Assembly: GCF_000092105.1 (NCBI RefSeq)
Contig: NC_014148.1
Location: forward strand, 4,860,001 to 4,892,000
Reading direction: 5' to 3'
DNA length: 32,000 nt
Source of the DNA: Planctopirus limnophila DSM 3776
GTDB taxonomy: Bacteria > Planctomycetota > Planctomycetia > Planctomycetales > Planctomycetaceae
Below, in pieces: positions 1 through 14,810 of the stretch (positions are counted from its first letter, which is position 1; the number at the start of each line of letters is the position of its first letter). The position numbers and the translations under genes are program-made. The notes below the pieces were generated by a model. That model was not told where the DNA came from. It saw only the letters and a list, made by a program, of their open reading frames with translations, and did not search any database.

Positions 1-1820
1 CGCCCATCCTTCGTGACGATGTGGTTGCGAATGAACGTGAACTGGCCCAATCGTCCTGGCAGCAATCTGGGTTTGCTCCAGGCCCGGCCCTGATTGGGAC
101 TGGTCATGATCCATGATTGCCAGTTTCGGCCCCACGTTTCAGAGTGCGTCGAAAAGAACATGGTTAACTTGCCGCGATGCACCATCACCTCGGTCGCACC
201 TTGTCCACTGGTGAGACCACTGCGCGGCAGACCGGTGGGAACCTCCTGGATCGCAGACCAGGTCTTTCCCTGATCCAGACTTTTGACGACGCCTATGTAG
301 TTCCCTGGCGATGGTTCGATGTCGTCACCCGCCAGCAGGTAGAGCGCCCACGATTTATCCGGCAACTGACGCAGTGTCGTGTCGCAAACCAATTTGTTCG
401 GTGTGATACCATCATAGGCAATCGTTGTACGGTCGAACTCCGCATTCTGCAGAGCTTTGTCTTTCCATCGACCCTGCGAACCTTCGACCATGGCGAGAAG
501 TTTCACGTCAATTGGCTGCGCCACGGGGTCTTTTTTCACGCCGGGCAATTTTGATTCGAGAAGCCCGCCCATGGCCTTGGTGATCACTCCCTGAAGGCGT
601 GCATCGTGTGAAACAATTTTTCCAGCTGCCACATCCTCTTCCCGAAAAACAGCCAGCTGCACTTCCCGCTCTTTCGCCCGCTCGCGGTCATACGAAATGT
701 AGATTCTTCCATCGGGAGCCTGAAAACCATCCGGGTAGGAAACTCCTCCCCGGTCATCGAGCATCAGTCCGCCGCCCCAGGTTTGGCCCTCATCATGTGA
801 GAGGAACGCCATCAGTCGTGTCCGATGTTTTGTGCGTTCATCCACCTGGCCATGCCTGACCAGCAGCAGGCTTCCTGAAGCCAACCGACGGATATGAAAT
901 CTCGTCGGGATATGCGGCATCGCCATTTCAGGCTGACTCCAGGTCTTTCCCTGATCTTGCGAGAGACTTTCAAACATCCCTTCTGTGGTGCGGGCCAGCA
1001 TCCAGAGTGTGCCATCCTTGCGTTCGATAATCATATGTTCGTCAAACTGCGGGCCAGGAAAGGCGACGCCGCCACGATAGTTCCACGTCTTTCCTTGATC
1101 TTGGGAAACCAGGACATTGGCCTTGCGGTAAGGGTCGAGTTCTGGAGCAGCGGTTTTGAGTTCCGCAGGACCGATCTTGCCGCGATCCCATAATGAAACG
1201 GGAAGCATCCATTCCCCCGACTTGAGGACAGTCGGTTTATTGAGCGTGCAACCATCCCAGATCCGGCGTGGAGCCGACCAGACAGGAGATGCAGCATCGG
1301 GGTCATCGCACGTGATCGCCCAGTTCCCGGCACGACCATCAAAATAGCCCATCGATTGATCGAAAAAGAGCCAGAGTCTGCCGGTGGGATCAGTCCATAA
1401 ATTTCCGACAAGAATCCGACGCTTCAAACCTGTGGGTGCTTCGGGTGGATCAATGACCAGTTGTGGCGACTTCCACGTCTGGCCATCGTCATCACTCAGG
1501 CCCAGCACAAAAAATCCTTTCTCGCTGTCTCCACCCGCCACCCAGGCGGCCCACAAACGTCCTTTGGACGTTCGTTCAATCCCGATGGTCATGGAGTAGT
1601 CAAGCTGCTCCGGCGAATATTCGGGCCCGGGATGGGTCTGAATCACCGGTGGAACCAGCGAAAGATCCAGAATCTCGCGTCCGGGCAAAGTCTCTGCCCC
1701 CAGAGTGACTTGCCCTCCCAGAAAGCAGCACACTCCTCCCAGGAATAACAAACTCAGACAGCGGGTGAACTCTTTGAGGTTCTCAGAAACAACAATGTAT
1801 AAAGCGCGCGACCGAGGCAT
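1..1820 (-). CDS. BNR/Asp-box repeat, sialidase-like glycoside hydrolase with N-terminal signal/anchor; C-terminus lies beyond the left window edge
   Basis: Not in the ORF track, probably because there is no in-window stop. My reverse-complement translation from ATG (1820..1818) stays open to position 1. It starts MPRSRALYIVVSENLKEFTRCLSLLFLGGVCCFLGG. It contains repeated S-x-D-x-G-x-T-W Asp boxes: SDDDGQTW, SQDQGKTW (twice), SHDEGQTW, SLDQGKTW and a degenerate SPNQGRAW. These are arranged as two propeller-like halves. Confidence 0.8.
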   Translation of the reverse strand, partial: MPRSRALYIVVSENLKEFTRCLSLLFLGGVCCFLGGQVTLGAETLPGREILDLSLVPPVIQTHPGPEYSPEQLDYSMTIGIERTSKGRLWAAWVAGGDSEKGFFVLGLSDDDGQTWKSPQLVIDPPEAPTGLKRRILVGNLWTDPTGRLWLFFDQSMGYFDGRAGNWAITCDDPDAASPVWSAPRRIWDGCTLNKPTVLKSGEWMLPVSLWDRGKIGPAELKTAAPELDPYRKANVLVSQDQGKTWNYRGGVAFPGPQFDEHMIIERKDGTLWMLARTTEGMFESLSQDQGKTWSQPEMAMPHIPTRFHIRRLASGSLLLVRHGQVDERTKHRTRLMAFLSHDEGQTWGGGLMLDDRGGVSYPDGFQAPDGRIYISYDRERAKEREVQLAVFREEDVAAGKIVSHDARLQGVITKAMGGLLESKLPGVKKDPVAQPIDVKLLAMVEGSQGRWKDKALQNAEFDRTTIAYDGITPNKLVCDTTLRQLPDKSWALYLLAGDDIEPSPGNYIGVVKSLDQGKTWSAIQEVPTGLPRSGLTSGQGATEVMVHRGKLTMFFSTHSETWGRNWQSWIMTSPNQGRAWSKPRLLPGRLGQFTFIRNHIVTKDG

Positions 1821-2083
1821 GAGCACGTGCCTTTCTCGCAAAAAAGGAGGAGATGTCAATCCGTGATGTAAACAAACCAGCTGTCAAACAAACCCAGGTG
1901 GCAAACAAAACCGAGTGGCAAAGAGCAAAGTCATTGACCAGCAGCAACTTCTTTGTAACGACTTGCCCGGCTCAAGGACAGAGGCCACAAGGCTCCCCAA
2001 GAGCAACAATCTTAAGAATCACCACAACCTCTTCGTCATGAACGACATGATGGAGAAACATTTTCATCTATACAGACTCTCTC

Positions 2084-2150
2084 TAGAATCTACGGACATT
2101 TAGACCCAAAGATAATCAACAACAGCCGTCATTGAATGTGTAGAATCTAC
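2084..2150. promoter_or_regulatory. Two copies of the palindromic motif TAGAATCTAC (2084-2093, 2141-2150) in the AT-rich divergent intergenic region; candidate operator pair
   Basis: Exact 10-mer repeated 57 nt apart. The second copy reads GTAGA-A-TCTAC, a perfect palindrome, and ends 13 nt before the ATG at 2163. Confidence 0.3.
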
Positions 2151-2162
2151 AAGGCATTACTT

Positions 2163-2429
2163 ATGAAATCACAGCTAACAAACGCTGGTAATACGATTGT
2201 TCCGGCGTATCTTGCACTCCTTGCGAGGGGATTGTCGATTGTCAAAGAACCATCAGCATTTACTGAGTCAGGCATGATTTGGGTTGCCGAAGACACAACG
2301 ACTCAGTTTTCTGCCGAAGATCTGGTAACGCTCCTGGGCTTGGTGGCCATGCAAGAAACTCGGGGAGCAGGTTGGCAGGCATCGGACGAAGAAATTGAAA
2401 GTTTCTTCGCGAAATATGGTGTGCCTTGA
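2163..2429 (+). CDS. Small soluble hypothetical protein (88 aa from ATG 2163; the track ORF starts at ATG 2136)
   Basis: ORF track 2136..2429. Balanced, protein-like composition. The stop overlaps the next ORF's start. I recognise no family. Confidence 0.45.
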   Translation: MKSQLTNAGNTIVPAYLALLARGLSIVKEPSAFTESGMIWVAEDTTTQFSAEDLVTLLGLVAMQETRGAGWQASDEEIESFFAKYGVP

Positions 2430-2803
2430 AAGATGATTTATTCAAATTGCGTGAGCCTGATATCACTCAGATGGATCCTGTCACTCAGCTTCAAACGTCG
2501 AGACAAGTGCCACTTTGGCGAATGGCTCGAATTCTGGGCTGGTCGCCTCTGGTGATGGCCATCCCGGTTTTCTTCATCATTGCCGAATGGATTCCTGACC
2601 GGAATCATGGGAGCATTGCCGACGGTTTTCGAAAACTCAATGTCTTCCTGGAAGTGATGGCCCCTTTGGCGATCATCTGTTGGGTGGCCGCAATCCTCAT
2701 CATGATCTGGGCAAGTTTCTACTCATCGGCTCACAGCCGACAGAATTGGCGGTTAGCCGCCTTGATTTTCCTGGTTGGCCTGACACTGTTACTGATGGCT
2801 TAG
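2426..2803 (+). CDS. Small integral membrane protein, about 3 TM segments, unknown function
   Basis: ORF track. The TTG at 2426 overlaps the upstream TGA (2427-2429); an alternative ATG lies at 2471. Hydrophobic stretches: SPLVMAIPVFFIIAEWI, VMAPLAIICWVAAILIMIWASFY, LAALIFLVGLTLLLMA. Confidence 0.55.
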   Translation: MKDDLFKLREPDITQMDPVTQLQTSRQVPLWRMARILGWSPLVMAIPVFFIIAEWIPDRNHGSIADGFRKLNVFLEVMAPLAIICWVAAILIMIWASFYSSAHSRQNWRLAALIFLVGLTLLLMA

Positions 2804-2894
2804 TATTGTTACTGCTCAGTACGCTCAACACGTCTCAAGCAATACTTCTCCAGTGTTCTCCCATGAAATTGACACGCCGCCTGCTGTTGAAGAT
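2758..2894 (+). repeat. Direct repeat copy 1: last 14 codons plus stop of the membrane gene, the intergenic spacer, and the first 10-11 codons of a Tat-signal ORF
   Basis: Hand alignment to 5747-5884 gives about 120 identical of 138 aligned columns with one 1-nt gap. Weaker similarity continues to about 2920 / 5915. Confidence 0.9.
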
Positions 2895-3045
2895 GGCATC
2901 AGCTTCTTGCTGGGACATTCTGTTCCCACTGAAGGCCTGTGATGCACTTGGGGGTTTGTCTTTCTTGATGATCAAGGGGGAGTTGGATAGGCAACTCGCA
3001 AGGAAATCAAAAGCTTCACGGGCAGTTTGGAGCCTTCTTTCCTGA
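2863..3045 (+). pseudogene. Truncated 5' remnant of a PhoD-like Tat-signal gene (MKLTRRLLLK...)
   Basis: It begins with the same ATG and MKLTRRLLLK as the intact gene at 5853. It then diverges and stops after 60 codons. It lies inside repeat copy 1. Confidence 0.5.
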
Positions 3046-3277
3046 TCGCTATTTGTACCGAAATGAGTGGCAACGCGTGTTCGCTGAAAATTGATGATCA
3101 TGCCGGCTGCCCGTTGGTCTTGGTTATCGGTAAGACAAAATGAGCAGCTAGCCTCTTCCGATCGATTACGTGCCACCTTTTTTGAGGGTAAGTCGTCCGA
3201 CAAACTTTTTGCTGTGCATGTGAAAAAATCGTGAGATTGTGCTGAACCTTTTTCCGTGAAGCAGGGAATCAAAGGGC

Positions 3278-3874
3278 ATGGAAGGCAATCGCACTTATTC
3301 CGAGAGCGAACTGATTCGCCGCATACAAGCGGGGGAGTCAGGTCTTTTTCAAGAACTTGCCCGCCGGCACTCAGAATCGTTGCTGCGTTGTGCCTTCACT
3401 CTTTGCCGAGACCAGCAGTTCTCAGAGGATCTGACGCAAGAAGCATTACTGGAAGGGTGGCGTTTCATCGGTCGATTCGATGGCCGGTGCCAGTTTTCCA
3501 CCTGGTTGTACGGAATTTTAAGGCATCGATTCTTGAAATCTCTCAGACAGAAGTCGCTGCAAGAACCGCACTCGTGGCTTCTCGATGCAGCTTCTCTCAT
3601 GACGGCTGAAACGATTGATCCTGTTCACCAATTGAAACTGAACGAAGACGCATCACGACTGCGGCAGGCGGTGGCTTTGCTTCCCGATGAACACCGCCAG
3701 GTGATCGAGCTTCGTTTTTTTGCCGAAGCGTCCCTCGAAGACATAGCGGCAGCACTCGATGTTCCGTTGGGAACAGTCAAATCGAGACTTCACAACGGTC
3801 TGGAAAAACTGCGGCAACAAAAAATCACTGTGAACCTTTTCTCGAACACCGGGGAATCAGGAGTGAAACCATGA
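3278..3874 (+). CDS. ECF-type RNA polymerase sigma-70 family factor
   Basis: Region 2: FQELARRHSESLLRCAFTLCRDQQFSEDLTQEALLEGW. Region 4 HTH: LPDEHRQVIELRFFAEASLEDIAAALDVPLGTVKSRLHNGLEKLR. Length is 198 aa. Confidence 0.92.
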   Translation: MEGNRTYSESELIRRIQAGESGLFQELARRHSESLLRCAFTLCRDQQFSEDLTQEALLEGWRFIGRFDGRCQFSTWLYGILRHRFLKSLRQKSLQEPHSWLLDAASLMTAETIDPVHQLKLNEDASRLRQAVALLPDEHRQVIELRFFAEASLEDIAAALDVPLGTVKSRLHNGLEKLRQQKITVNLFSNTGESGVKP

Positions 3875-4464
3875 TGCACGATTCACTCACACCTTGTGAA
3901 ACTCGCCTTGAGGAGATCAGCCTGCACGCTGCTGGCTGTCTGACGGAAAGCGAATCCCGCGAACTCCGGGAGCATCTTGGCCAATGTGCAGGATGCCAGG
4001 AGCGTTTTGTGGAAATGCAGAATCTCACAGGGGCCTTAAGGACTGCAAAACCTGAAGTTGATTCAGCCCGTGTGGCCCTCATCGAACAAACCCTTCTTTC
4101 GTTGAAGTCAGAGATACCCAGGAGAAAGCGATACTCTGTCACAGCGTTCGTGAGCGCCATACTGGTAGCTGCCGGTATTCTGGTGATGATAGGTCTTTTT
4201 AGCCCATTCTTCTCACGAGAACATCAGCCTTCAGTCGCGAGATCTGTCGATCCGACCCTGCCCACTCCTTCGCAGGTTGTCTCTGATGCTCCAGTCATCG
4301 TTGCGGATGCCTCCATTTCCCGGTCAGTGCCAACATTGATGGCACTTCGTCGAGCAGCGTCTGAGTCAGAGGAGTCCCTCGACAAACTCCTCGCTCAATG
4401 TTCGGAACATGTCTTTAACGATTCATCTCAACCTCCCTCTGTATGGCAAGGAAATGTACAATGA
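3871..4464 (+). CDS. Anti-sigma factor: zinc-finger (HC2-like) N-terminus, single TM, short extracytoplasmic tail
   Basis: ATGA overlap with the sigma gene stop. H-x3-C-x2-C motif (EHLGQCAGCQERF). TM segment AFVSAILVAAGILVMIGLF. Confidence 0.75.
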   Translation: MMHDSLTPCETRLEEISLHAAGCLTESESRELREHLGQCAGCQERFVEMQNLTGALRTAKPEVDSARVALIEQTLLSLKSEIPRRKRYSVTAFVSAILVAAGILVMIGLFSPFFSREHQPSVARSVDPTLPTPSQVVSDAPVIVADASISRSVPTLMALRRAASESEESLDKLLAQCSEHVFNDSSQPPSVWQGNVQ

Positions 4465-5693
4465 AACGAACAACGACCCTGCTGATTCTGGGATTACTGA
4501 TATCTGGCGGAACTTCTTCACATCTCCGTGCTGAAGTCGTTCCTCAATCGGCGCCAGTTGTCAAGATGGCTGCTGCTCCCAACGCGGCTGTTATCTACTG
4601 GCAGGCCTTTTATGCGATCCCGAATCTGACTGAAGAGCAGAAGAAGGTTCTCGAAGCCGCCATTTCCAGCGACGAAGCACCAGTTTCTGATCAGCTAAAA
4701 CCAATTTTTGCTCAATACCGTATTGCCTTGCATGAAATGCAGCGTGCCCGCCAGGTGACTCCTTGTGACTGGCAACTGGACATGAGCGCTGGCCCCGAAT
4801 TACTGCTACCGCACGTCCAGAAATTGCGAGAACTCAGTCGCGTTAGTCTTCTCAGGGCTCGACAGCGGTTTGCTGAGGGTGAGAACGATGCAGCGATCGA
4901 TGATGTTCTGGCAACTCTGAAAATGGCGCGGGATTGTGCCAGCAGTCCCCTTCTGATTTCGATTTTGGTCAATGCCTCGATTGAAAAGGCCGCCATTGAC
5001 CTTCTGGCCCGCCAACTTCCGGCGTTAACAAAAGATCAACGGGATCGTCTTGAAAAAGAACTTGCACTGCTGCCACCAACGGTCACTGTTGCCACTGCCA
5101 TGCAATGGGAAGGCGAGATTTTTGGTACCTGGTTGAAACGAAAACTAGAAGCCGAGATTCGACAGCAGGGCAATTCTCCCTCAATCGAAAAACTGTTTGC
5201 AGCGCTTTGTCTGTCGATCGGTGTCCCCTGCAATTTGGATCCCAAGCCAGAGGATCGTGAGGGACAGCGTCGGGCCGAGTTAATCAGAACTTTGTCAATT
5301 GCTGATATTCATGCACAAATTGATCAATTGAGCGATGATTTCAATACTCTGGCCCAAATTGCCAGCCTGCCGATCGATCAGCGAAAGGCCAAAGTCGACG
5401 CCTTTGAAAAGTCGATTGAAGCTGCCAAACAGTTAAAGGACAAGGCCGATTTAAGACGCTGCCTGACCATCACAGCTCTGCCATCAATTGGAAATGTCAT
5501 CACTCGTGAAGAGCAACTGCATATTCGTCGTCAGTTACTGGAACAGGCGTTAAGGGTCCTCCGGGACGGTGAGAATTCATTGACACCAATCGACGGGAAA
5601 ATGGTTCGATATCAGAAAATGGCCCATGGCTTTGAACTCCATTTATCAAGCAGCTCTGGTGATGTCATCTTGAAGGTTGGCACCGAGAGTTAG
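4461..5693 (+). CDS. Secreted, helix-rich protein of unknown function; third gene of the ECF module
   Basis: The ATG at 4461 forms an ATGA overlap with the anti-sigma stop. Signal peptide MKRTTTLLILGLLISGGTSSHLRAE. About 410 aa. No family recognised. Confidence 0.7.
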   Translation: MKRTTTLLILGLLISGGTSSHLRAEVVPQSAPVVKMAAAPNAAVIYWQAFYAIPNLTEEQKKVLEAAISSDEAPVSDQLKPIFAQYRIALHEMQRARQVTPCDWQLDMSAGPELLLPHVQKLRELSRVSLLRARQRFAEGENDAAIDDVLATLKMARDCASSPLLISILVNASIEKAAIDLLARQLPALTKDQRDRLEKELALLPPTVTVATAMQWEGEIFGTWLKRKLEAEIRQQGNSPSIEKLFAALCLSIGVPCNLDPKPEDREGQRRAELIRTLSIADIHAQIDQLSDDFNTLAQIASLPIDQRKAKVDAFEKSIEAAKQLKDKADLRRCLTITALPSIGNVITREEQLHIRRQLLEQALRVLRDGENSLTPIDGKMVRYQKMAHGFELHLSSSSGDVILKVGTES

Positions 5694-5746
5694 ACTCATC
5701 GTTCCAGGGAAATCAAGATGATGTTCCATAACGATTGATCGGACGT

Positions 5747-5884
5747 CGCCTTGATTTTCCTCGTTGGTCTGACACTGATACTGATGACGTAGTATTATTA
5801 CTGCTTCAAAACGCTCAATACCTCTCATGCAGTACCTCTTCAGAGTTCACCCATGAAATTGACACGCCGCCTGCTGCTGAAGAT
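5747..5884 (+). repeat. Direct repeat copy 2 (partner of 2758-2894)
   Basis: See copy 1. It contains an orphan ALIFLVGLTLILMT-stop fragment, the spacer, and the true start of the PhoD-like gene. Confidence 0.9.
5748..5792 (+). pseudogene. Orphan 3' fragment (14 codons plus TAG) of the membrane gene that ends at 2803
   Basis: It translates ALIFLVGLTLILMT* against ALIFLVGLTLLLMA* at 2759-2803. An in-frame TGA at 5736-5738 lies just upstream, so there is no gene body. Confidence 0.5.
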
Positions 5885-7829
5885 TGCCCCTGTGGTTCTG
5901 TTGGGACAGTCTTGTATTTCCCGCGCTTTTGCTGCTGCCGTGCCACCGTTTGGAGAGAAGTATCCCAACCTGGAATCGCTGACGACCGGCGAGTGGTGGA
6001 ACAAAGGGGCGCTGGCGGCAACGCCGAATGCGAACAAGAACGCCAAGGGCAAAACCAAAGCGGCTGGCGGTCCGGCGGCACCGCCTTCGATGAATGTGCC
6101 GCGAGATGAGGTGGTCTGCTTCGCGTATTACACGCAGCAGAATGGCGTGCTGAAGCTGAGTGCCCAGCTCTTTCCACTAAAGCCCGATGAAGAGCGTGTG
6201 GCCAGGCTCGAAGTCCGACCCGCAGGCGAAGACTGGAAGGAGATCGCCAGAACTGAGGTGCTTTATCCGGGTTGGGATGCCCATTTTCGCGTCGAGGGCT
6301 GGGATGGTTCAAAGAACGTTCCCTATCGAGTGCGTCACGGCGAGAAGGCCATGTTTGAAGGCCTCATCCGTCGCGATCCTGTCGAGAAAGAGGTGATCGT
6401 TGTCGCCAACATGAGCTGTAACAGCAGTCGCACCATCGGACCACGCACAGAGATTGTCGATAACCTCCGCGCTCAGGATCCTGATGTTCTTTTCTTCGGT
6501 GGTGATCAGACCTATCGCCACACCGAACACACTGCCGGCTGGATTGAATTCGGCTTGCAGTTCCGCGACATCATCCGCGACCGGCCCACGGTCTGCATTC
6601 CCGACGATCACGATGTCGGCCATCCGAATCTCTGGGGCGAAGAAGGTGGTCAATCGCACATCGAAGGCGATGCGGACGGAGGCTATCGGTACCCGGTCGC
6701 ATACGTCAATCAGGTCCAGCGGCAGCAATCATGGCATCTGCCCGATGCACCCGATCCCGCGCCAGTCAACCGGGATATTTCGGTCTATTTCACGCGAATG
6801 ACTGTCGGTGGCATCGACTTTGCCATTCTCGAAGATCGAAAGTTCAAGACCGGTCCTGCTGGAATGATCCCGCAGATGGGACCGCGTCCTGACCATATCA
6901 ATGATCCCTCGTATGACCCGAAGAGTATTGACCTGCCTGGTCTCGAACTGCTCGGCCCGCGACAGGAGAAGTTCCTGCACGAGTGGTCGCAGGATTACAG
7001 CGGCGGTGCCGAGATGAAATGTGTTCTTTCTGCGACCGCCTTTTGCGGAGCGGTCCATATGCATGGCGGACCGAACAGCCGACTGCTGGCCGATCTCGAC
7101 TGCAATGGCTGGCCGCAAAGTGGTCGCAATCGTGCTCTCCGGGAGATTCGTCGCGCGTGGGCTCCGCATCTCTGTGGCGACCAGCATCTGGCGGTCGTCG
7201 TCAAGCATGGTATTGAGACGTTCGGCGACGGCCCGTTTGGTTTCACCAGTCCCGCCCTTGTGAACACAATCTATGGTCGCTGGTGGCATCCGCTGGATGA
7301 GCAGGCCGGGCCGAATCCCGTTCCGAACAGCCCATTGCCCTGGACTGGTGATTTCAAAGATGGACTTGGCAATCCGATCAGCATGCTGGCCTACGCCAAC
7401 CCCGAGAACATTCAGAACGAACAGCAAAGGGCCGATGGCTACGGCCTGATCCGTTTCGACAAGAAGTCGCGAAAGATTACGTTCGAGTGCTGGCCGCGGT
7501 TTTCAAAGGTCAGCGAAGGAGACAAAGCCCAGTTCCCCGGCTGGCCAGTGACCATTGCGCTCGATGCTAACGATGGTCGCGCGATTCAAGGCTGGCTGCC
7601 GGAACTGATCTTCGAAGGGGTTGAGAATCCTGTGGTTCAGGTGATCGAGGAAGCGACTGGAGATATTCTTTACGCAGTCCGCGTGCAGGGAACCCGCTTC
7701 CAGCCACGGGTCTATTCGACTGGTAAGCATACGGTCAAAGTGGGCCGGGACCGACCGGACGCTCAGTCGATGGAAGGCCTGGAGCCTCGGCCAAAGGACA
7801 TGGCCGGAAGTCGCCAGGTCAAATTCTGA
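5853..7829 (+). CDS. Tat-exported PhoD-like / calcineurin-like metallophosphatase
   Basis: Twin-arginine signal MKLTRRLLLKIAPVVLLGQSCISRAFA. Metallophosphatase-like motifs VVANMSCN, FFGGDQTY, IPDDHDVGHPNLWG, LCGDQHL. Length is 658 aa. Confidence 0.8.
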   Translation: MKLTRRLLLKIAPVVLLGQSCISRAFAAAVPPFGEKYPNLESLTTGEWWNKGALAATPNANKNAKGKTKAAGGPAAPPSMNVPRDEVVCFAYYTQQNGVLKLSAQLFPLKPDEERVARLEVRPAGEDWKEIARTEVLYPGWDAHFRVEGWDGSKNVPYRVRHGEKAMFEGLIRRDPVEKEVIVVANMSCNSSRTIGPRTEIVDNLRAQDPDVLFFGGDQTYRHTEHTAGWIEFGLQFRDIIRDRPTVCIPDDHDVGHPNLWGEEGGQSHIEGDADGGYRYPVAYVNQVQRQQSWHLPDAPDPAPVNRDISVYFTRMTVGGIDFAILEDRKFKTGPAGMIPQMGPRPDHINDPSYDPKSIDLPGLELLGPRQEKFLHEWSQDYSGGAEMKCVLSATAFCGAVHMHGGPNSRLLADLDCNGWPQSGRNRALREIRRAWAPHLCGDQHLAVVVKHGIETFGDGPFGFTSPALVNTIYGRWWHPLDEQAGPNPVPNSPLPWTGDFKDGLGNPISMLAYANPENIQNEQQRADGYGLIRFDKKSRKITFECWPRFSKVSEGDKAQFPGWPVTIALDANDGRAIQGWLPELIFEGVENPVVQVIEEATGDILYAVRVQGTRFQPRVYSTGKHTVKVGRDRPDAQSMEGLEPRPKDMAGSRQVKF

Positions 7830-7979
7830 TACGGATTCCAATAAACAACTGCGTCGGCGGGTGGCTGGGGTTGAGTCTGCGAACCCCCAGCGATTTTTGG
7901 CATGAACTGGGGGTTCGCGAAGACGCTCAACCCCAGCCACCCCATACCAGGGAGCGCGGTCGAATACTGGAATCCGTAT
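7829..7979. repeat. Three-tier nested palindromic element immediately after the PhoD-like stop codon
   Basis: Outer arms: ATACGGATTCCA (7829-7840) / TGGAATCCGTAT (7968-7979). Middle arms: GGGTGGCTGGGGTTGAG (7859-7875) / CTCAACCCCAGCCACCC (7926-7942). Inner arms: GCGAACCCCCAG (7879-7890) / CTGGGGGTTCGC (7907-7918). All three pairs are perfect complements. Confidence 0.85.
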
Positions 7980-8251
7980 GAGTAGTTGTAAATCAACATT
8001 GAGGATTCAAACCGCGCAGATTGTGAACAGCGTGATGAGGCGCTCAGCTGAGTCCCCGATTTCTTTGAGCCTAAGCACATCGCTGTACAGGTTTTTGAAC
8101 AGATGTCGATGCCAGCGTCTTGCGGGTGCATGATCCACTTCCCTAGAATACTCGTTACTCCAAGACGGGCTCGTCTGCCAGATCAGACGATGTGTGGCGA
8201 CTCCCGTTCAATTCAAGCTCTTTCCTTCAGCGAAACCCAGGGAAAACCTTT

Positions 8252-9193
8252 ATGAATGAGATCATTACGGCTCTGATCATCGTGGGAGTGATCTTCCTCG
8301 CGATCATTGGCATTATTCTCTTCATCGCCCTGGCTTCGTACTTCAATCTGTGGTTGCGGGCCTCCTTTGCCGGTGTGCGGATCAATCCTTTTTCGCTGCT
8401 CTTCATGTCGCTGCGAAAGATCAATCCGCCGCAGATTGTCGATGCACTCATCATGTCCACCCAGTCGGGAATTTCCGGCATCACACGCTCCAAACTCGAA
8501 GCTCACATGCTGGCGGGCGGGAATATCAATACCGTTGTCCGCGCGTTGATTGTGGCTCACCGGGCGAATATTGACCTCGACTGGGATACCGCATCGGCGA
8601 TTGATCTCGCGGGCCGCAATGTGTTGGAAGCTGTTCGTACAAGTGTCGATCCCAAGGTGATTGATTGCCCCGATCCGGCTCACTTCGGACGCACCACACT
8701 CGATGGCGTCGCTCGCAACGGCATTCAGCTCAAAGCCAAAGCCCGCGTCACTGTGCGAACCAACATTTCCCAACTGGTCGGTGGTGCGACTGAAGACACG
8801 GTGATTGCCCGCGTGGGTGAAGGGATCGTCTCGGCGATTGGTTCGTGCCAGACCCATTACGATGTCCTCTCGAATCCTTCACTGATCGCCAAGGCTGTGC
8901 TGGATAAGGGGCTCGATTCCCAGACCGCTTATGAGATCGTCTCGATCGACATTGCCGACATCGACGTGGGTGACAACATTGGTGCCCGGCTCCAGGCCGA
9001 TCAGGCAGAAGCTGATAAGCGAATCGCCCGTGCCAAAGCCGAGGAGCGTCGAGCTCGGGCCGTTGCTGCCGAACAGGAAATGCGGGCCCTTACAGTCGAA
9101 AACCAGGCGAAAGTGGTGCTGGCCGAAGCCCAGATTCCACTGGCCATGGCAGCCGCCTATCGCAATGGTTCACTCCGTGCAAATCCAAAGTAG
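8252..9193 (+). CDS. floA: Flotillin-like protein FloA (UPF0365 / YqfA family, SPFH-related)
   Basis: Close resemblance, from memory, to Bacillus FloA along its length: N-terminal [98 protein letters not shown] prefer the ATG at 8252 to the track start at 8192. Confidence 0.9.
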
Positions 9194-12455: not shown

Positions 12456-13397
12456 GTGGCTGCGACAGTACTCGTCACTGGTGGTGCAGGTTTTGTGGGA
12501 AGTCATATTTGTGACCGTCTCATTGAGCGAGGCGACAAAGTCATCTGCCTCGACAACTTTTTCACAGGCCGCATGGCCAATATTTCTCACCTGAAAGATC
12601 ATCCGCAGTTTCAACTGGTGGATCACGATATTGTCCATCCGATCACACTTGATGCCGATCGCATTTACAACATGGCTTGCCCTGCTTCGCCAGTGGCTTA
12701 TCAGTACAACCCCATCAAGACGATCAAGACCTCGACATTGGGGATGATCAACATGCTGGGTCTGGCCAAGCGCTGCAAAGCCCGCATCCTGCAGGCCAGC
12801 ACTTCGGAAGTTTATGGCGACCCGGTGGTACATCCTCAAACCGAAGATTACTGGGGGCATGTCAATCCGTTAGGGCCACGCAGTTGCTATGACGAAGGGA
12901 AGCGCGTTGCTGAATCGCTGTGCATGAACTATCACCTGGCTCATCAGCTCGAGATTCGCATTGTCCGCATCTTTAACACTTACGGCCCGCGGATGGATCC
13001 CAACGACGGGCGGGTGATTTCGAACTTTATCACACAAGCTCTCAAAGGGGAGCCACTCACTGTCTATGGTGATGGCAGCCAGACCCGTTCCTTCTGCTAT
13101 GTCGATGATCTCGTGCGCGGCATCATGGCACTGATGGATCAGGGGATTCATACTGGCCCGGTGAATATCGGAAATCCAGGGGAATATACCATGCTCGAAC
13201 TCGCAGAGCAGGTTCTCAAAGCCACAGGTTCAAAGAGCACCATCGACTTCCGCCCCCTGCCTCAAGATGACCCGAAACAGCGCTGCCCGGATATCACCCG
13301 CGCGAAAGCGATGCTGAAGTGGGAGCCGCAGATTCCACTGGCGGAAGGTCTTGAGAAGACCGTCCATTACTATCGACAGCAGCTGGGTATTGACTAG
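12456..13397 (+). CDS. UDP-glucuronate decarboxylase (UDP-xylose synthase), SDR family
   Basis: [13 protein letters not shown] Rossmann motif, [23 protein letters not shown] (YxxxK). Colinear with UXS-type enzymes. GTG start at 12456. Confidence 0.9.
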
Positions 13398-13421
13398 TTT
13401 CGAACGTTTGGATTGATCAAC

Positions 13422-13739
13422 TCAAGCGACCTTTTCGGTACCTGCTGGAATGATTCCCAAAGCAGCGCAAATCGCATCCACCTGCACCGTAGACAATGGT
13501 CCCAGACCTTCCAGGAAGTCGTTTAGCTGTGCGGAAGTGATGTCTGCTGACTGACACAGCAGTTCCAGTGGGATCTCTCGATGTTCATGAATTTGCCGAC
13601 GTAACCATCCTGAATGTGTCAGCTCACCAGCAGCCTTCATCGCACGAACCAACCCGGCACTGTCTTTGACTCGACCAGCCTGAGCAGCTTGTTGTTTTGC
13701 CCGGAGTTCCTCCGGACTGATTTTGATTTCTTTCATCAT
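13422..13739 (-). CDS. XRE-type helix-turn-helix protein, HigA-like antitoxin candidate
   Basis: 105 aa. C-terminal HTH IPLELLCQSADITSAQLNDFLEG...LSTVQVDAICAALGI. The start forms an ATGA overlap with the upstream ORF's stop (13736-13739). Confidence 0.6.
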   Translation of the reverse strand: MMKEIKISPEELRAKQQAAQAGRVKDSAGLVRAMKAAGELTHSGWLRRQIHEHREIPLELLCQSADITSAQLNDFLEGLGPLSTVQVDAICAALGIIPAGTEKVA

Positions 13740-14080
13740 TCCTCCGTTGGCTCATAAGCGGTGACTGGCAAAACTGTCATGGTATCAATCATCTCGTAGA
13801 CACAAATCAACCACCGCAACAAGAATGGGCACGGATGCTTCGATCGCGAGACGTAGTACTCTTTTCGCCTTTTCGATTGTAATGATGTGACTAGCCAGGC
13901 TGGTGGACAGGTTTCGGAAATGCGTGTTCGCAATTTTTCAAGCGTACGGCGATAATGCAATCGACGCGCAAGTATGCGATACAACTTGAGCAGAGCATCT
14001 GAGAACCGGTTGTCACTCCCTTGAGTGATCTCAATTGTGATTGCCGATGATCTTGAACATTTTCTTCCGGGATCTTTCAT
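13736..14080 (-). CDS. Small basic protein, RelE/HigB-superfamily toxin candidate (start uncertain)
   Basis: Translationally coupled upstream of the HTH gene, which is the HigB-HigA order. The segment [22 protein letters not shown]...[21 protein letters not shown] loosely recalls the PPGNRLE-L-G-R-G-YS-R...W-ICF motif of plasmid-killer HigB proteins; this is a memory-based match. Track ORF is 13736..14146; in-frame ATGs lie at 14092 and 14080. Confidence 0.4.
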
Positions 14081-14810
14081 GTCCGTAGTCATCTCGCCGC
14101 AAACCCTCACGGAACTGGCACTCTTCGATACTCCCACGATCTGCAATGCGGTCGAGCTTTGGGATCTCCGGCCTCGTAATGAAGGCTACATGAATTCGTC
14201 CATCCGGGCCTGCTTTCCGGATCTTCCACCGATGGTCGGCTTTGCTCTCACCAGCACCTTCCGCAGCCAGAAGCCACCCCGTGGCGGAGATGCTTACGGC
14301 AGCATGGGTGCACAAGTTGAAGCCATGGCCAGTATTCCCGGCCCGCCCGTGATCGTTTTTCAGGATCTGGATGAGCCCGTCGCTTCGGCCACATTCGGCG
14401 AAGTGATGTGTACGACCTATCAAAGTTTTGGTGCCAAAGGCATCATCACCTCTGGTGCCGGTCGCGACCTCGATCAGGTCGCTCCCCTCAAGTTTCCCGC
14501 TTTTACCAGTGGCTCCATCGCTGCCCATGGGTATTGCCATATCCTCGCGATCAACGTCCCTGTCACAGTGGGTGGCATCACCATCTATCCCGGCGATCTG
14601 CTTCATGGCGACCGCAATGGAGTGAGTACCATACCGCCGGAAATCGCGAGCGAAGTTCCCGATGTCTGCCGTGAACTTGCGAAAGCCGAAGCCATTGTCC
14701 TCGGTTACCTCAAAGATCCATCTCGAACAGTCGCAGGCTTTAACGATGCTCGCAAAGCCTGTGCGGCTCATATTGCTGAGGTCAGGTCACGATTGCTTAA
14801 AACTCATTAA
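14079..14810 (+). CDS. RraA family protein (RraA / HMG-aldolase-like fold)
   Basis: [65 protein letters not shown] prefer the ATG at 14079 to the GTG at 14025. Confidence 0.8.

Follow-up and report, generated by a model that had tools for sequence, protein, structure and literature searches.

The interval between a BNR-repeat gene and a gene for a 658-aa protein with a Tat-type signal in Planctopirus limnophila DSM 3776 contains an ECF sigma operon bracketed by two diverged direct copies of one gene junction. Comparison of a 32,000-nt stretch of this genome (hereafter the window) with the equivalent loci of relatives recovered four alleles of the interval. The relatives keep the operon and lack the 1.1-kb segment that carries the first junction copy, which shows that the operon is a resident feature, common to all relatives examined, and that the segment is specific to P. 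limnophila. We favour, with moderate confidence, the reading that the junction (J) is native to the interval and acts as an anchor for recombination, that the downstream copy (J2) is the scar of a lost unit, and that the upstream copy (J1) came with a diverged partial unit.

The repeated junction and the genes around it

The two copies, J1 (2758..2922, forward strand) and J2 (5747..5913, forward strand), are identical in about 123 of 141 columns (~87%, one gap) over 2758-2897 and 5747-5887. A repeat search of the window recovers them as two pairs of blocks, namely 2758-2816 with 5747-5805 (59 nt, 90%) and 2816-2897 with 5806-5887 (82 nt, 85%), separated by a 1-nt register shift. Local alignment extends a weaker homology, with two additional small gaps, to 2922/5913 (score 189), and past 2922 is no better than alignments of shuffled sequences (21 against a mean of 18.9 and a maximum of 26). 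The longest identical block, CCCATGAAATTGACACGCCGCCTGCTG, is a 27-nt core at 2860..2886 and 5850-5876 (forward strand) that occurs exactly twice in the window against 0.00 expected; it contains an ATG (2863 in J1) and the beginning of a Tat signal peptide (MKLTRRLL), and is the same in all J copies compared. J1 comprises the last 14 codons and TAG stop of the small gene p125, a spacer of about 60 nt and the first ~20 codons of the Tat-signal gene, those beyond codon 11 being indel-degraded. Its ATG opens a stub ORF of 60 codons (2863..3045, forward strand; MKLTRRLLLK...) whose homology to the 658-aa gene is limited to those first ~20 codons. J2 holds the orphaned 3' end of a p125-like gene, its final 14 codons and stop (ALIFLVGLTLILMT-stop, 5748-5792; an in-frame TGA lies just before it at 5736-5738), followed by the spacer, the core and the start of the intact 658-aa gene. 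Judged by their sequences, J1 and J2 are true homologues of a single gene junction. The duplication proposed in the initial annotation (2758-2894/5747-5884) is thus real and beyond chance, as are the contents ascribed to each copy.

No further J copies were seen in the window, and a scan of JGI metagenomes with a 23-nt core as the query returned just two contigs, both from this locus, which argues against a generic multi-copy repeat. An assembly artefact is excluded by an independent Logan contig that covers the region from end to end, and parts of it are also present in contigs of three further runs. Both window copies enclose a sigma-70-like match, albeit a weak one to the consensus; by eye, the hydrillae-type J has a poorer one. 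Single-strand folding of J showed no hairpin and nothing unusual (z-scores -0.1 to +2.1), and neither tRNAs nor Rfam families were seen at the locus. Domain searches of the window and the relatives' loci found no recombinase, integrase or intact transposase, in agreement with the initial annotation. The relatives carry a sub-threshold DUF4096 relic.

Between the copies lie the three genes originally described there: an ECF sigma factor (3278..3874, forward strand; Pfam Sigma70_r2/r4, NCBIfam sigma70-ECF) that is 96% identical to its P. ephydatiae orthologue, an anti-sigma factor (3871..4464, forward strand; zf-HC2 domain, a single transmembrane segment), and a 410-aa secreted protein as the third gene of the operon (4461..5693, forward strand). 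An ECF-promoter-like motif, TGAACC-N17-GAATC, is located just 5' of the sigma gene (3243..3270, forward strand) and again upstream of the anti-sigma start (3831-3858), giving two matches against 0.08 expected. The operon tail (5694..5746) meets the J2 relic at a junction (…GATTGATCGGACG followed by CGCCTTGATTTTCC) that is the same in the window, P. ephydatiae, P. hydrillae, contig L098 and the first J copy (Ja) of contig L097.

The left flank is a BNR-repeat (sialidase-like) gene (3..1883, reverse strand), present as the 5' part of an 823-aa gene that continues beyond the window, and BNR_2 (Pfam) is annotated on the same gene in L001/L004. It is 96.5% identical to its counterpart in P. ephydatiae, 94.0% to that in P. 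hydrillae and 92.6% to that in L095. The adjoining intergenic DNA (1884..2082) is common to relatives and reaches as far as the left breakpoint of the 1.1-kb segment found only in P. limnophila, BLAST homology stopping at 2082 for L091-L094 and at 2047 for L043. The right flank is the conserved 658-aa gene itself (5853..7829, forward strand), with 532 relatives in genomes of the Planctomycetes-Verrucomicrobia group. The label PhoD-like given to it earlier is weak: the Pfam PhoD match is sub-threshold (E=0.0075; 15.9 bits, where the cut-off is 27), neither NCBIfam nor PDB sequences gave a hit, and the gene can be termed only weakly PhoD-like.

The limnophila-specific segment and the alleles of the interval

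The segment 2083..3220 (forward strand; GC 0.484), which carries p88, p125, J1 and the stub, is absent from L043 and L091-L096. Its breakpoints fall within 2083-2137 on the left and at about 3186-3221 on the right; the DNA flanking it is 92-100% identical to P. ephydatiae, and in its place P. ephydatiae and P. hydrillae share a filler of ~110 nt. At the left breakpoint a 10-nt direct repeat, TAGAATCTAC (2084-2093 and 2141-2150, spanning 2084..2150 on the forward strand), encloses 57 nt; its first copy begins where the ephydatiae homology ends, and its second sits at the onset of homology to the units of S95 and L097 (2137/2146). The gene p88 (2163..2429, forward strand; 97 aa if translation starts at an alternative ATG upstream, at 2136) codes for a small soluble protein whose 32 homologues are all about 88 aa long. 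It shows dN/dS of 0.16-0.28 against S95 and L097, no match in Pfam, NCBIfam or PADLOC, and an AF2 model (pLDDT 88) with no fold match in the PDB. Its stop overlaps the start (TTGA) of p125 (Plim_3782; 2426..2803, forward strand), a small membrane protein of 125 aa with 21 remote relatives, dN/dS of 0.42-0.52 and nucleotide identities of 87% to S95 and 79% to L097. By these ratios both genes are under purifying selection. Elsewhere, homologues of p125 and p88 occur in one-directional arrays of small genes, including Imm35 and SUKH immunity-type genes. The right-end DNA of about 300 nt (2923..3220) and the left-end 2083-2136 have no blastn or tblastx match in any relative locus compared, nor does the former match elsewhere in the window; a 145-aa minus-strand ORF at 2835-3272 has no Pfam match.

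P. ephydatiae, P. hydrillae JC280 and related contigs from metagenomes and runs possess the BNR gene, ECF operon, J2 relic and Tat gene, and all lack 2083-3220. The operon itself is in place in P. ephydatiae, P. hydrillae and L091-L094 (L093 stops short of J2); for L097 and L098 the evidence is the junction of operon tail and relic, L097 having only 80 nt of the tail before Ja. Relatives whose contigs extend that far share the J2 relic and Tat gene at 91-95% identity. Allele A, seen in S95 (two short contigs, L095 and L099, joined over a 26-nt overlap), consists of the BNR gene, a divergent ECF operon, an IS relic, a 264-aa gene, p88, p125, a single J and the Tat gene. L095 and L096 both have the divergent operon at the equivalent position beside the BNR gene; the 38 nt 5' of the sigma ATG are identical to the window, although the operons themselves are just 70% identical. 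In allele B, found in the hydrillae-like L097/L087, the operon tail is followed by the Ja relic, an IS relic, a 267-aa gene, p88, p125, a second copy (Jb) and the Tat gene. Its unit of 1,964 bp, from the IS relic to p125, is enclosed by Ja and Jb (94.8% identical over 134 nt) and is independently supported by L087 (98.6%). Allele C (P. ephydatiae, P. hydrillae JC280, L098) comprises the BNR gene, the ECF operon, a solo J relic and the Tat gene, JC280 and L098 being the empty form of the L097/L087 site; comparison of Jb and the Tat gene with JC280 showed no divergent donor tract. Allele D, that of P. limnophila, is allele C with the 1.1-kb segment placed between the BNR gene and the sigma promoter, namely p88, p125, J1, 20 codons of a foreign Tat gene and ~300 nt more.

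An allele with p125 abutting the Tat gene, for which the initial annotation proposed to look, thus exists in S95 (L099), but an ECF operon lies upstream there, so the site is not empty for ECF; likewise, an insert between J copies can be paired with its empty site (L097/L087 against JC280/L098), but the flanked unit is p88-p125.

Identity changes sharply within these alleles. The p125 bodies of S95 and L097 are 79% identical, and at the left edge of J this climbs to 94% for J itself. The window and S95 agree at 96-98% over 2638-2727, at 93% in the bin spanning the edge (2728-2772) and at only 77-78% over 2773-2861, such that the p125 body beside J1 is 96-98% identical to S95 whereas J1 itself is 77-84% identical to the S95 J. 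J1 is the most divergent of the J copies (87% to J2, 84% to S95, 80% to hydrillae/L097) and differs by 13-20% from every other. These comparisons support the earlier suggestion that one J copy derives from a diverged (homeologous) source. The locus as a whole is a recombination mosaic, with blocks 100% identical to either P. ephydatiae or P. hydrillae.

Origin of the bracketed arrangement

The favoured reading takes J as the native junction between p125 and the conserved Tat-signal gene and as a recurrent recombination anchor, within an interval that is structurally polymorphic and accessory in Planctopirus and would be reshaped by both homologous and illegitimate recombination. Given alleles A to D as found, J2 would mark where a resident p88-p125 unit was lost, a scar of single origin that is common to alleles B, C and D. 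J and the Tat gene might then have served as homology for the re-acquisition of units, and alleles B and C could be linked by loop-out or loop-in between Ja and Jb. J1 would be the later arrival, carried in on part of a unit whose source lineage was more diverged, probably by conversion of allele C to allele D, the limnophila breakpoints being joined by an illegitimate or homology-facilitated route. The bracketing of the ECF operon would be a by-product of the J2 scar and the arrival of J1. The change from C to D is formally a replacement in both directions, because each allele has private sequence. The absence of 2083-3220 may also reflect a deletion allele spread by recombination, given that the polarity rests on three species and S95 in a visibly mosaic locus. 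In favour of the polarity, P. ephydatiae shares the filler allele with the more distant P. hydrillae at 85-88% identity, their normal local divergence, with no sign of recent transfer of a deletion allele, although the DNA beside the indel is 92-100% identical between P. limnophila and P. ephydatiae and these two are the closest pair in the BNR gene. On the other side, no donor of the segment was found among the loci compared, where 2083-2136 and 2923-3220 match nothing. Random insertion within 3.7 kb of a resident J2 is improbable, which hints at a local or homology-guided route.

A rival reading, which we consider unlikely, is that J1-ECF-J2 formed at one stroke in a relative outside the sample, by Campbell integration or by tandem duplication followed by deletions, and that P. 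limnophila imported just the left part (2083-3220) by homologous recombination, through crossovers in the BNR-side spacer and the conserved sigma promoter. It accounts for the foreign segment lying in the same interval and accords with the mosaic locus, and the 38 identical nt before the sigma gene, conserved even between the 70%-identical operons, offer a crossover site. However, neither the relatives nor the metagenome core scan yielded such a donor allele, J1 is distant from all other J copies, and the origin is moved further back and left unexplained.

Local relocation has a slender chance of being correct. It posits a B-like ancestor (ECF operon, Ja, unit, Jb, Tat gene), in which recombination between Ja and Jb left J2 and the excised circle re-inserted illegitimately upstream of the operon. 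Alleles B and C of the hydrillae-like strains suggest that such loop-out or loop-in happens, the route would explain why J1 lies close to J2 and how the resident unit was lost, and 2923-3220 and 2083-2136 could have adjoined in the circle. Yet no allele joins 3220 to 2083, J1 includes Tat-gene codons 11-20, which would be missing from a circle of the L097 type, it is an outlier even to limnophila's own J2, and its contrast with the p125 body in identity to S95 points to a different source lineage.

The initial annotation had viewed the operon as cargo of a Campbell-type integration: an ancestor with the order BNR, p88, p125, J and Tat gene would have received a circle of ECF and J by a single crossover in J, and other species would later have lost p88-p125-J1. 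We regard this as very improbable. In its favour, the window has precisely the topology of a Campbell product, L097 shows it around another unit, and in S95 a 70%-identical version is swapped in, so that the operon is accessory-like. The check on composition also found GC3 of the operon (0.48-0.52) below that of the flanking core genes (0.59-0.64). Against the model, the operon has the same position relative to the BNR gene and the sigma promoter in all relatives, those with the relic form of J have the identical breakpoint, and the piece that varies in presence is 2083-3220, not 2898-5746. Moreover, S95 combines an ECF operon with an intact p125-J-Tat-gene junction, and the model requires either a pair of independent deletions that share both their ends and their filler or the spread of a deletion allele between P. 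ephydatiae and P. hydrillae without a sign of recent transfer.

Finally, it is scarcely credible that J is the attachment site of an integron-like or integrase-driven cassette system with the 27-nt core as crossover site: the core is invariant, the L097 stub breaks exactly at its end, and a J copy closes both the ECF operon and the p88-p125 unit in alleles B and D, but the start codon and Tat signal explain the conservation, the J1 stub breaks ~35 nt past the core, J does not bound the limnophila segment, J forms no hairpin, and neither a tRNA target nor any integrase, recombinase or transposase beyond the DUF4096 relic was found.

Relation to known recombination systems

The L097/L087 unit between its direct repeats, set against the single repeat without a unit in the closely related JC280 and L098, resembles Campbell-type integration or loop-out, and J1 and J2, as direct repeats, could in principle allow loop-out of the ECF operon. 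The window differs in that the DNA between its repeats is resident, the repeats are 13% diverged with an identical block of just 27 nt, J1 arrived within a separate segment whose ends do not lie at J, and a circular form, a plasmid origin and phage genes are all lacking. J2, which retains the last 14 p125 codons with an in-frame stop upstream and has the same breakpoint in three species, fits one old deletion or loop-out and recalls a solo-LTR relic, although J is an ordinary gene junction and not the terminus of a mobile element. The small accessory genes of variable order, each followed by a junction copy, are reminiscent of integron arrays or of orphan immunity and toxin modules, as is the proximity of p125 and p88 homologues elsewhere to Imm35 and SUKH genes; unlike these, the locus lacks an integrase and attC-like hairpins, the limnophila breakpoints are not at J, the window has no toxin gene or immunity domain, and only two or three "cassettes" are seen.

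At capsule and O-antigen loci, accessory cassettes are replaced between conserved flanks by homology-facilitated illegitimate recombination. Comparable features here are the BNR and Tat-gene flanks (92-96% identical) around an interior that differs in gene order or is 70-87% identical, the sharp changes of identity at the left edge of J and at the sigma promoter, and the 1.1 kb of foreign DNA that P. limnophila has for about 110 nt of resident sequence; the foreign piece differs in lying 3.7 kb from the homologous anchor of J2 and the Tat gene. On the favoured reading, the locus would represent ordinary recombination-driven variation rather than a mobile sigma cassette.

Gene content and the duplicated junction

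The left flank of the region is formed by a BNR-repeat gene on the minus strand (3-1883), which extends beyond the window edge, and is followed by two small genes, p88 (2163-2429, with an alternative ATG at 2136 that would give a 97-aa product) and p125 (2426-2803), the latter being the 125-aa ORF Plim_3782 of Planctopirus limnophila DSM 3776. The roughly 475 nt 3' of p125 contain no convincing gene, and beyond them come the three genes of the ECF operon, namely an ECF sigma gene (3278-3874), a zf-HC2 anti-sigma gene (3871-4464) and the gene for a 410-aa secreted protein (4461-5693), and then the "Tat gene", which encodes a 658-aa protein with a Tat-type signal (5853-7829). The sigma protein exceeds the cut-offs of PF04542, PF04545 and PF08281, the anti-sigma protein scores at the zf-HC2 cut-off, and the stop of the sigma gene overlaps the start of the anti-sigma gene; the two qualify as a predicted ECF sigma/membrane anti-sigma pair. 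The motif TGAACC-N17-GAATC occurs exactly twice in the 32 kb (3243-3270 and 3831-3858, versus 0.08 expected), just 5' of the sigma ATG and just 5' of the anti-sigma ATG, and is a candidate for an autoregulated ECF promoter; no copy is found in the repeated junction described below or before the Tat gene. The "PhoD-like" label given to the 658-aa protein by the initial annotation is weak, as its score against PF09423 (PhoD) is 15.9 bits versus a gathering cut-off of 27 (E=0.0075), and its assignment to the PhoD alkaline phosphatase family is not supported; searches of NCBIfam and of PDB sequences with this protein also gave no match.

The dN/dS values of p88 and p125 range from 0.16 to 0.52, and both genes are under purifying selection. 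Searches of Pfam, NCBIfam and PADLOC assigned no function to either product, to the secreted protein, or to the 264/267-aa protein encoded beside p88 in related alleles. The AF2 model of p88 is confident (pLDDT 88), and no PDB fold recovered with it by Foldseek was a meaningful match (E=0.25 at best, TM 0.3-0.4). The p125 gene is present once in P. limnophila, a remote search with its product recovered 21 small unannotated proteins, and a literature search by locus tag returned no paper. Distant homologues of p88 and p125 occur in contexts unlike this locus, in small-gene arrays with some immunity-like members. On L089 (2399-2935) and L101 (10857-11423), the distant p125 and p88 homologues belong to one-directional arrays of this type, among whose members are immunity-type proteins of the Imm35 (30.9 bits) and SUKH/SMI1-KNR4 (39.7 bits) families, neighbors that offer only a hint as to p88/p125 function.

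The junction between p125 and the Tat gene, here termed J, is present in two copies that bracket the ECF operon. The first (J1, 2758-2897) and the second (J2, 5747-5887) are direct repeats of approximately 87% identity with a single 1-nt gap, as the initial annotation had recognized; its description of the 14 terminal p125 codons, of the orphan ALIFLVGLTLILMT-stop fragment with an in-frame TGA upstream, and of the 60-codon stub was likewise accurate. A 27-nt block including the ATG is identical in J1 and J2 and occurs nowhere else in the window. Weaker homology extends to 2922/5913 and then ends: the signal for a degraded Tat-gene remnant past 2922 does not rise above that of shuffled sequences, and an extension of the relic to the left of 5747 was judged not significant, given that it reaches only about 50-60% similarity, needs a 16-nt gap and is not sustained by local alignment. 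Both copies contain a sigma-70-like match overlapping the p125 stop codon (J1, 2780-2809, CTGACA-18-TATTGT; J2, 5769-5798, CTGACA-18-TATTAT), which by eye is poorer in the hydrillae-type J. The entire arrangement is covered by an independent assembly, and parts of it were recovered on contigs of three further runs.

The ECF operon and the variable segment in relatives

Species-representative genomes were scanned with the 658-aa protein and the upstream contexts of the 80 genomic relatives that were kept were compared. P. hydrillae JC280 (L043) is the only one of these with the ECF operon upstream, and none of the 80 has p88 or p125 upstream of the Tat gene. Homologues of the sigma factor led further to P. 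ephydatiae (L092, together with L091, L093 and L094) and to the loci L095/L096. In all of these the ECF operon lies about 310-430 nt past the BNR gene, the J2 relic and the Tat gene then follow wherever the contigs extend far enough, and all relatives with a contig across the point where the operon tail meets the relic have an identical junction. No relative without the operon was found among those so examined. Positions 1-2082 and 3221-7829 are collinear with the relatives at 91-96% identity, and 2083-3220 is missing from them, its place being taken by a filler of about 110 nt common to P. ephydatiae and P. hydrillae.

The initial annotation had interpreted the ECF operon as the cargo of a Campbell-type integration. 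The retention of the operon in the relatives, taken together with the absence of 2083-3220, instead shows that the operon is resident and that the J1-bearing segment is the variable part. The polymorphic piece thus comprises p88, p125, J1 and the stub (2083-3220) and not the interval between the repeats (2898-5887). An allele with the membrane gene abutting the Tat gene, which the initial annotation had proposed as the empty site, does exist in the S95 allele described below; there, the operon is still found upstream of the intact p125-J-Tat junction. What survives of the integration reading is that direct repeats flank the operon, that the homology lies in the junction, that the source was homeologous, and that recombination took place at J.

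The flanks of the indel are 92-100% identical between P. limnophila and P. ephydatiae, these two also form the closest pair in the BNR gene, and no region groups P. ephydatiae and P. hydrillae as sisters to the exclusion of P. limnophila. The filler shows the usual local divergence between P. ephydatiae and P. hydrillae (85-88%). Hence, the filler allele is likely to be the older one and the limnophila arrangement derived. The argument for this polarity is strong but not absolute, because recombination has made a mosaic of the locus, in which some blocks match P. ephydatiae and others P. hydrillae at 100% identity. Within positions 1-9000, the blocks 1126-1500, 4400-5000 and 5600-6050 are 99-100% identical to P. 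ephydatiae (L092) and the block 7250-7630 is 99-100% identical to P. hydrillae (L043), a pattern that indicates frequent homologous exchange among these species. The segments 2083-2136 and 2923-3220 have no blastn or tblastx match that would point to their origin, either in any of the fetched loci or elsewhere in the window.

Other features were noted elsewhere in the window. At 13394-14098, a second strain-variable segment of about 700 nt is replaced by about 147 nt in P. ephydatiae and in the hydrillae-like metagenomic locus L097 and is partly present in P. hydrillae; it holds overlapping ORFs of 105 aa, weakly matching the Cro/C1-type HTH_26, and 136 aa, both on the minus strand, which may encode a toxin-antitoxin-like pair. 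Between the Tat gene and a FloA-like gene, the spacer (7830-7978) aligns poorly in all relatives, with BLAST breaks at 7829/7979, and is flanked by an imperfect 34-nt inverted repeat (7820-7853/7955-7988). Another 34-nt inverted repeat, 91% complementary, has its arms 9.3 kb apart (20463-20496/29850-29883).

Alternative alleles and the boundary at J

The closest homologue of p88 (91% identical) lies on L099, which together with L095, from the same sample and with a 26-nt overlap, reconstructs an allele here termed S95. Its order is BNR gene, ECF operon, a 180-nt spacer, a relic of an insertion sequence (IS), a 264-aa gene, p88, an intact p125, a single J and the Tat gene. The S95 operon (L095 3767-5331 plus L099 1-933) is only about 70% identical to positions 3243-5639 of the window; identity reaches 93-94% in the BNR and Tat genes on either side, and the 38 nt that precede the sigma ATG do not differ at all. 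On the face of it, the whole operon looks to have been allelically replaced between conserved arms. The 180-nt spacer (L099 934-1113) has at its ends, as judged by eye, the arms of a near-perfect 24-nt inverted repeat (TAGGGCAGGCTCCCGGCTGCCTTC / GAAGGCAGGCGGGAGCCTGCCCTA), and may be a small hairpin element. The IS relic is a truncated ORF on the left edge of the p88-p125 unit (L099 1114-1356, minus strand; L097 ~215-560). S95 and L097 share its point of truncation, and its L099 version has a sub-threshold match to DUF4096, the N-terminus of IS4/IS5 transposases (27.3 bits versus a cut-off of 34.3, E=4e-6).

A scan of 241 million JGI metagenome records with a 23-nt core of the identical block recovered only two contigs, L097 and L098, both of this locus. 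L097, which is 98% identical to JC280, has the order ECF operon tail, a relic copy of J (Ja), stub, IS relic, 267-aa gene, p88, intact p125, a second J (Jb) and the Tat gene; the stub breaks directly after the core, 1,964 bp separate the two cores, and the 134 nt shared by Ja and Jb show 94.8% identity. The p88-p125 unit was also assembled independently as L087, the ends of which lie within J sequence. The hydrillae-like L098 has a single J, as does JC280, and both differ from L097 exactly by the unit and one repeat, i.e. by a direct-repeat-flanked indel. Hence, a Campbell-like topology with an empty-site partner does exist, with the p88-p125 unit between the repeats. Divergence of L097 from JC280 is an even ~2% across Jb and the Tat gene, with no divergent tract that would betray a donor, which fits a loop-out or loop-in within the hydrillae lineage.

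Comparison of S95 with L097 shows that identity rises sharply, from 82% (p88) and 79% (p125 body) to 94% (J) and 95% (Tat gene). The window is 96-98% identical to S95 over 2638-2727, falling to 93% in the bin that spans the left edge of J (2728-2772) and to 77-78% inside J. These jumps imply that the bodies of the units and J differ in history, with the break coinciding precisely with the start of the relic; re-acquisition of units by genomes that retain a relic, through recombination using J and the Tat gene as anchors, would be expected to leave this pattern. Among the eight J copies, J1 stands out (87% identical to J2, 84% to S95 and 80% to the hydrillae type), the others being 86-98% alike, a divergence that probably marks a source lineage outside the sampled species.

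Several classes of mobile element were considered for the locus and rejected. As the initial annotation had noted, no integrase or transposase is visible: Pfam, NCBIfam and PADLOC searches with the ORFs tested across 2136-7829 returned no tyrosine or serine recombinase and no transposase. The window contains no tRNA or tmRNA, and an Rfam scan of it returned nothing. A site-specific integrative element is further disfavored by the differing breakpoints of the stubs, the one in L097 falling where the core ends and the one in J1 about 35 nt beyond. An integron-like cassette array is disfavored by the lack of an integrase hit and of an attC-type hairpin, single-stranded J folds being no more stable than shuffles on either strand (z -0.14 to +2.1). 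Against a transposon or IS with target-site duplication stand the absence of inverted repeats at the ends of 2898-5746 and 2083-3220, a repeat of 140-165 nt that is far too long, and a left breakpoint with only a 10-nt direct repeat. A generic multi-copy, REP/MITE-like intergenic repeat does not agree with two copies in 32 kb and the confinement of the JGI matches to this locus.

Proposed history and implications

What the comparisons show is a set of four alleles, a shared breakpoint of the relic, a repeat-flanked 1,964-bp indel, discontinuities in identity and a 1.1-kb replacement specific to P. limnophila, and the scheme favored here builds on these. J2 would be the scar of a resident unit lost in one old deletion or loop-out. 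J1 would have arrived with a diverged partial unit, extending from 26 nt 5' of p88 through codon 20 of the donor Tat gene, that also brought in 54 nt and about 300 nt of unmatched DNA and was joined into the BNR-sigma spacer by illegitimate or homology-facilitated recombination. The left breakpoint has a 10-nt direct repeat, TAGAATCTAC, bracketing 57 unexplained nt. The foreign segment lies suspiciously near J2, a proximity that two alternatives would account for: the import into P. limnophila of an arrangement that had already formed in a relative outside the sample, and the local excision and reinsertion of the unit. Taken together with the cargo model, which the residence of the operon contradicts, these alternatives might claim about a third of the total likelihood. 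A broader generalization, for which we see little likelihood, is that J (about 134 nt, from the p125 tail through the spacer to the start codon and its Tat-signal core) serves as a recombinase-free docking site, at which homologous recombination repeatedly adds, removes and reorders J-ended units upstream of the Tat gene, with the limnophila arrangement being one state of a homology-driven analogue of an integron array.

The scheme of loss followed by partial re-acquisition reveals no new mobile element or kind of mechanism, and the locus is a fresh instance of known locus plasticity. It constitutes a small recombination hot spot of Planctopirus with four allelic architectures, among them a recombinase-free indel between 134-nt repeats, and with phylogenetic signal that changes abruptly at a breakpoint inside a gene. 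Direct repeats around an operon do not prove that the operon is the mobile part, and the comparative data here reverse the polarity. For P. limnophila genetics, recombination between J1 and J2 could remove the ECF operon, and p88-p125 is strain-specific. On the whole, the locus illustrates how remnants of genes can serve as starting points for re-acquiring accessory genes.
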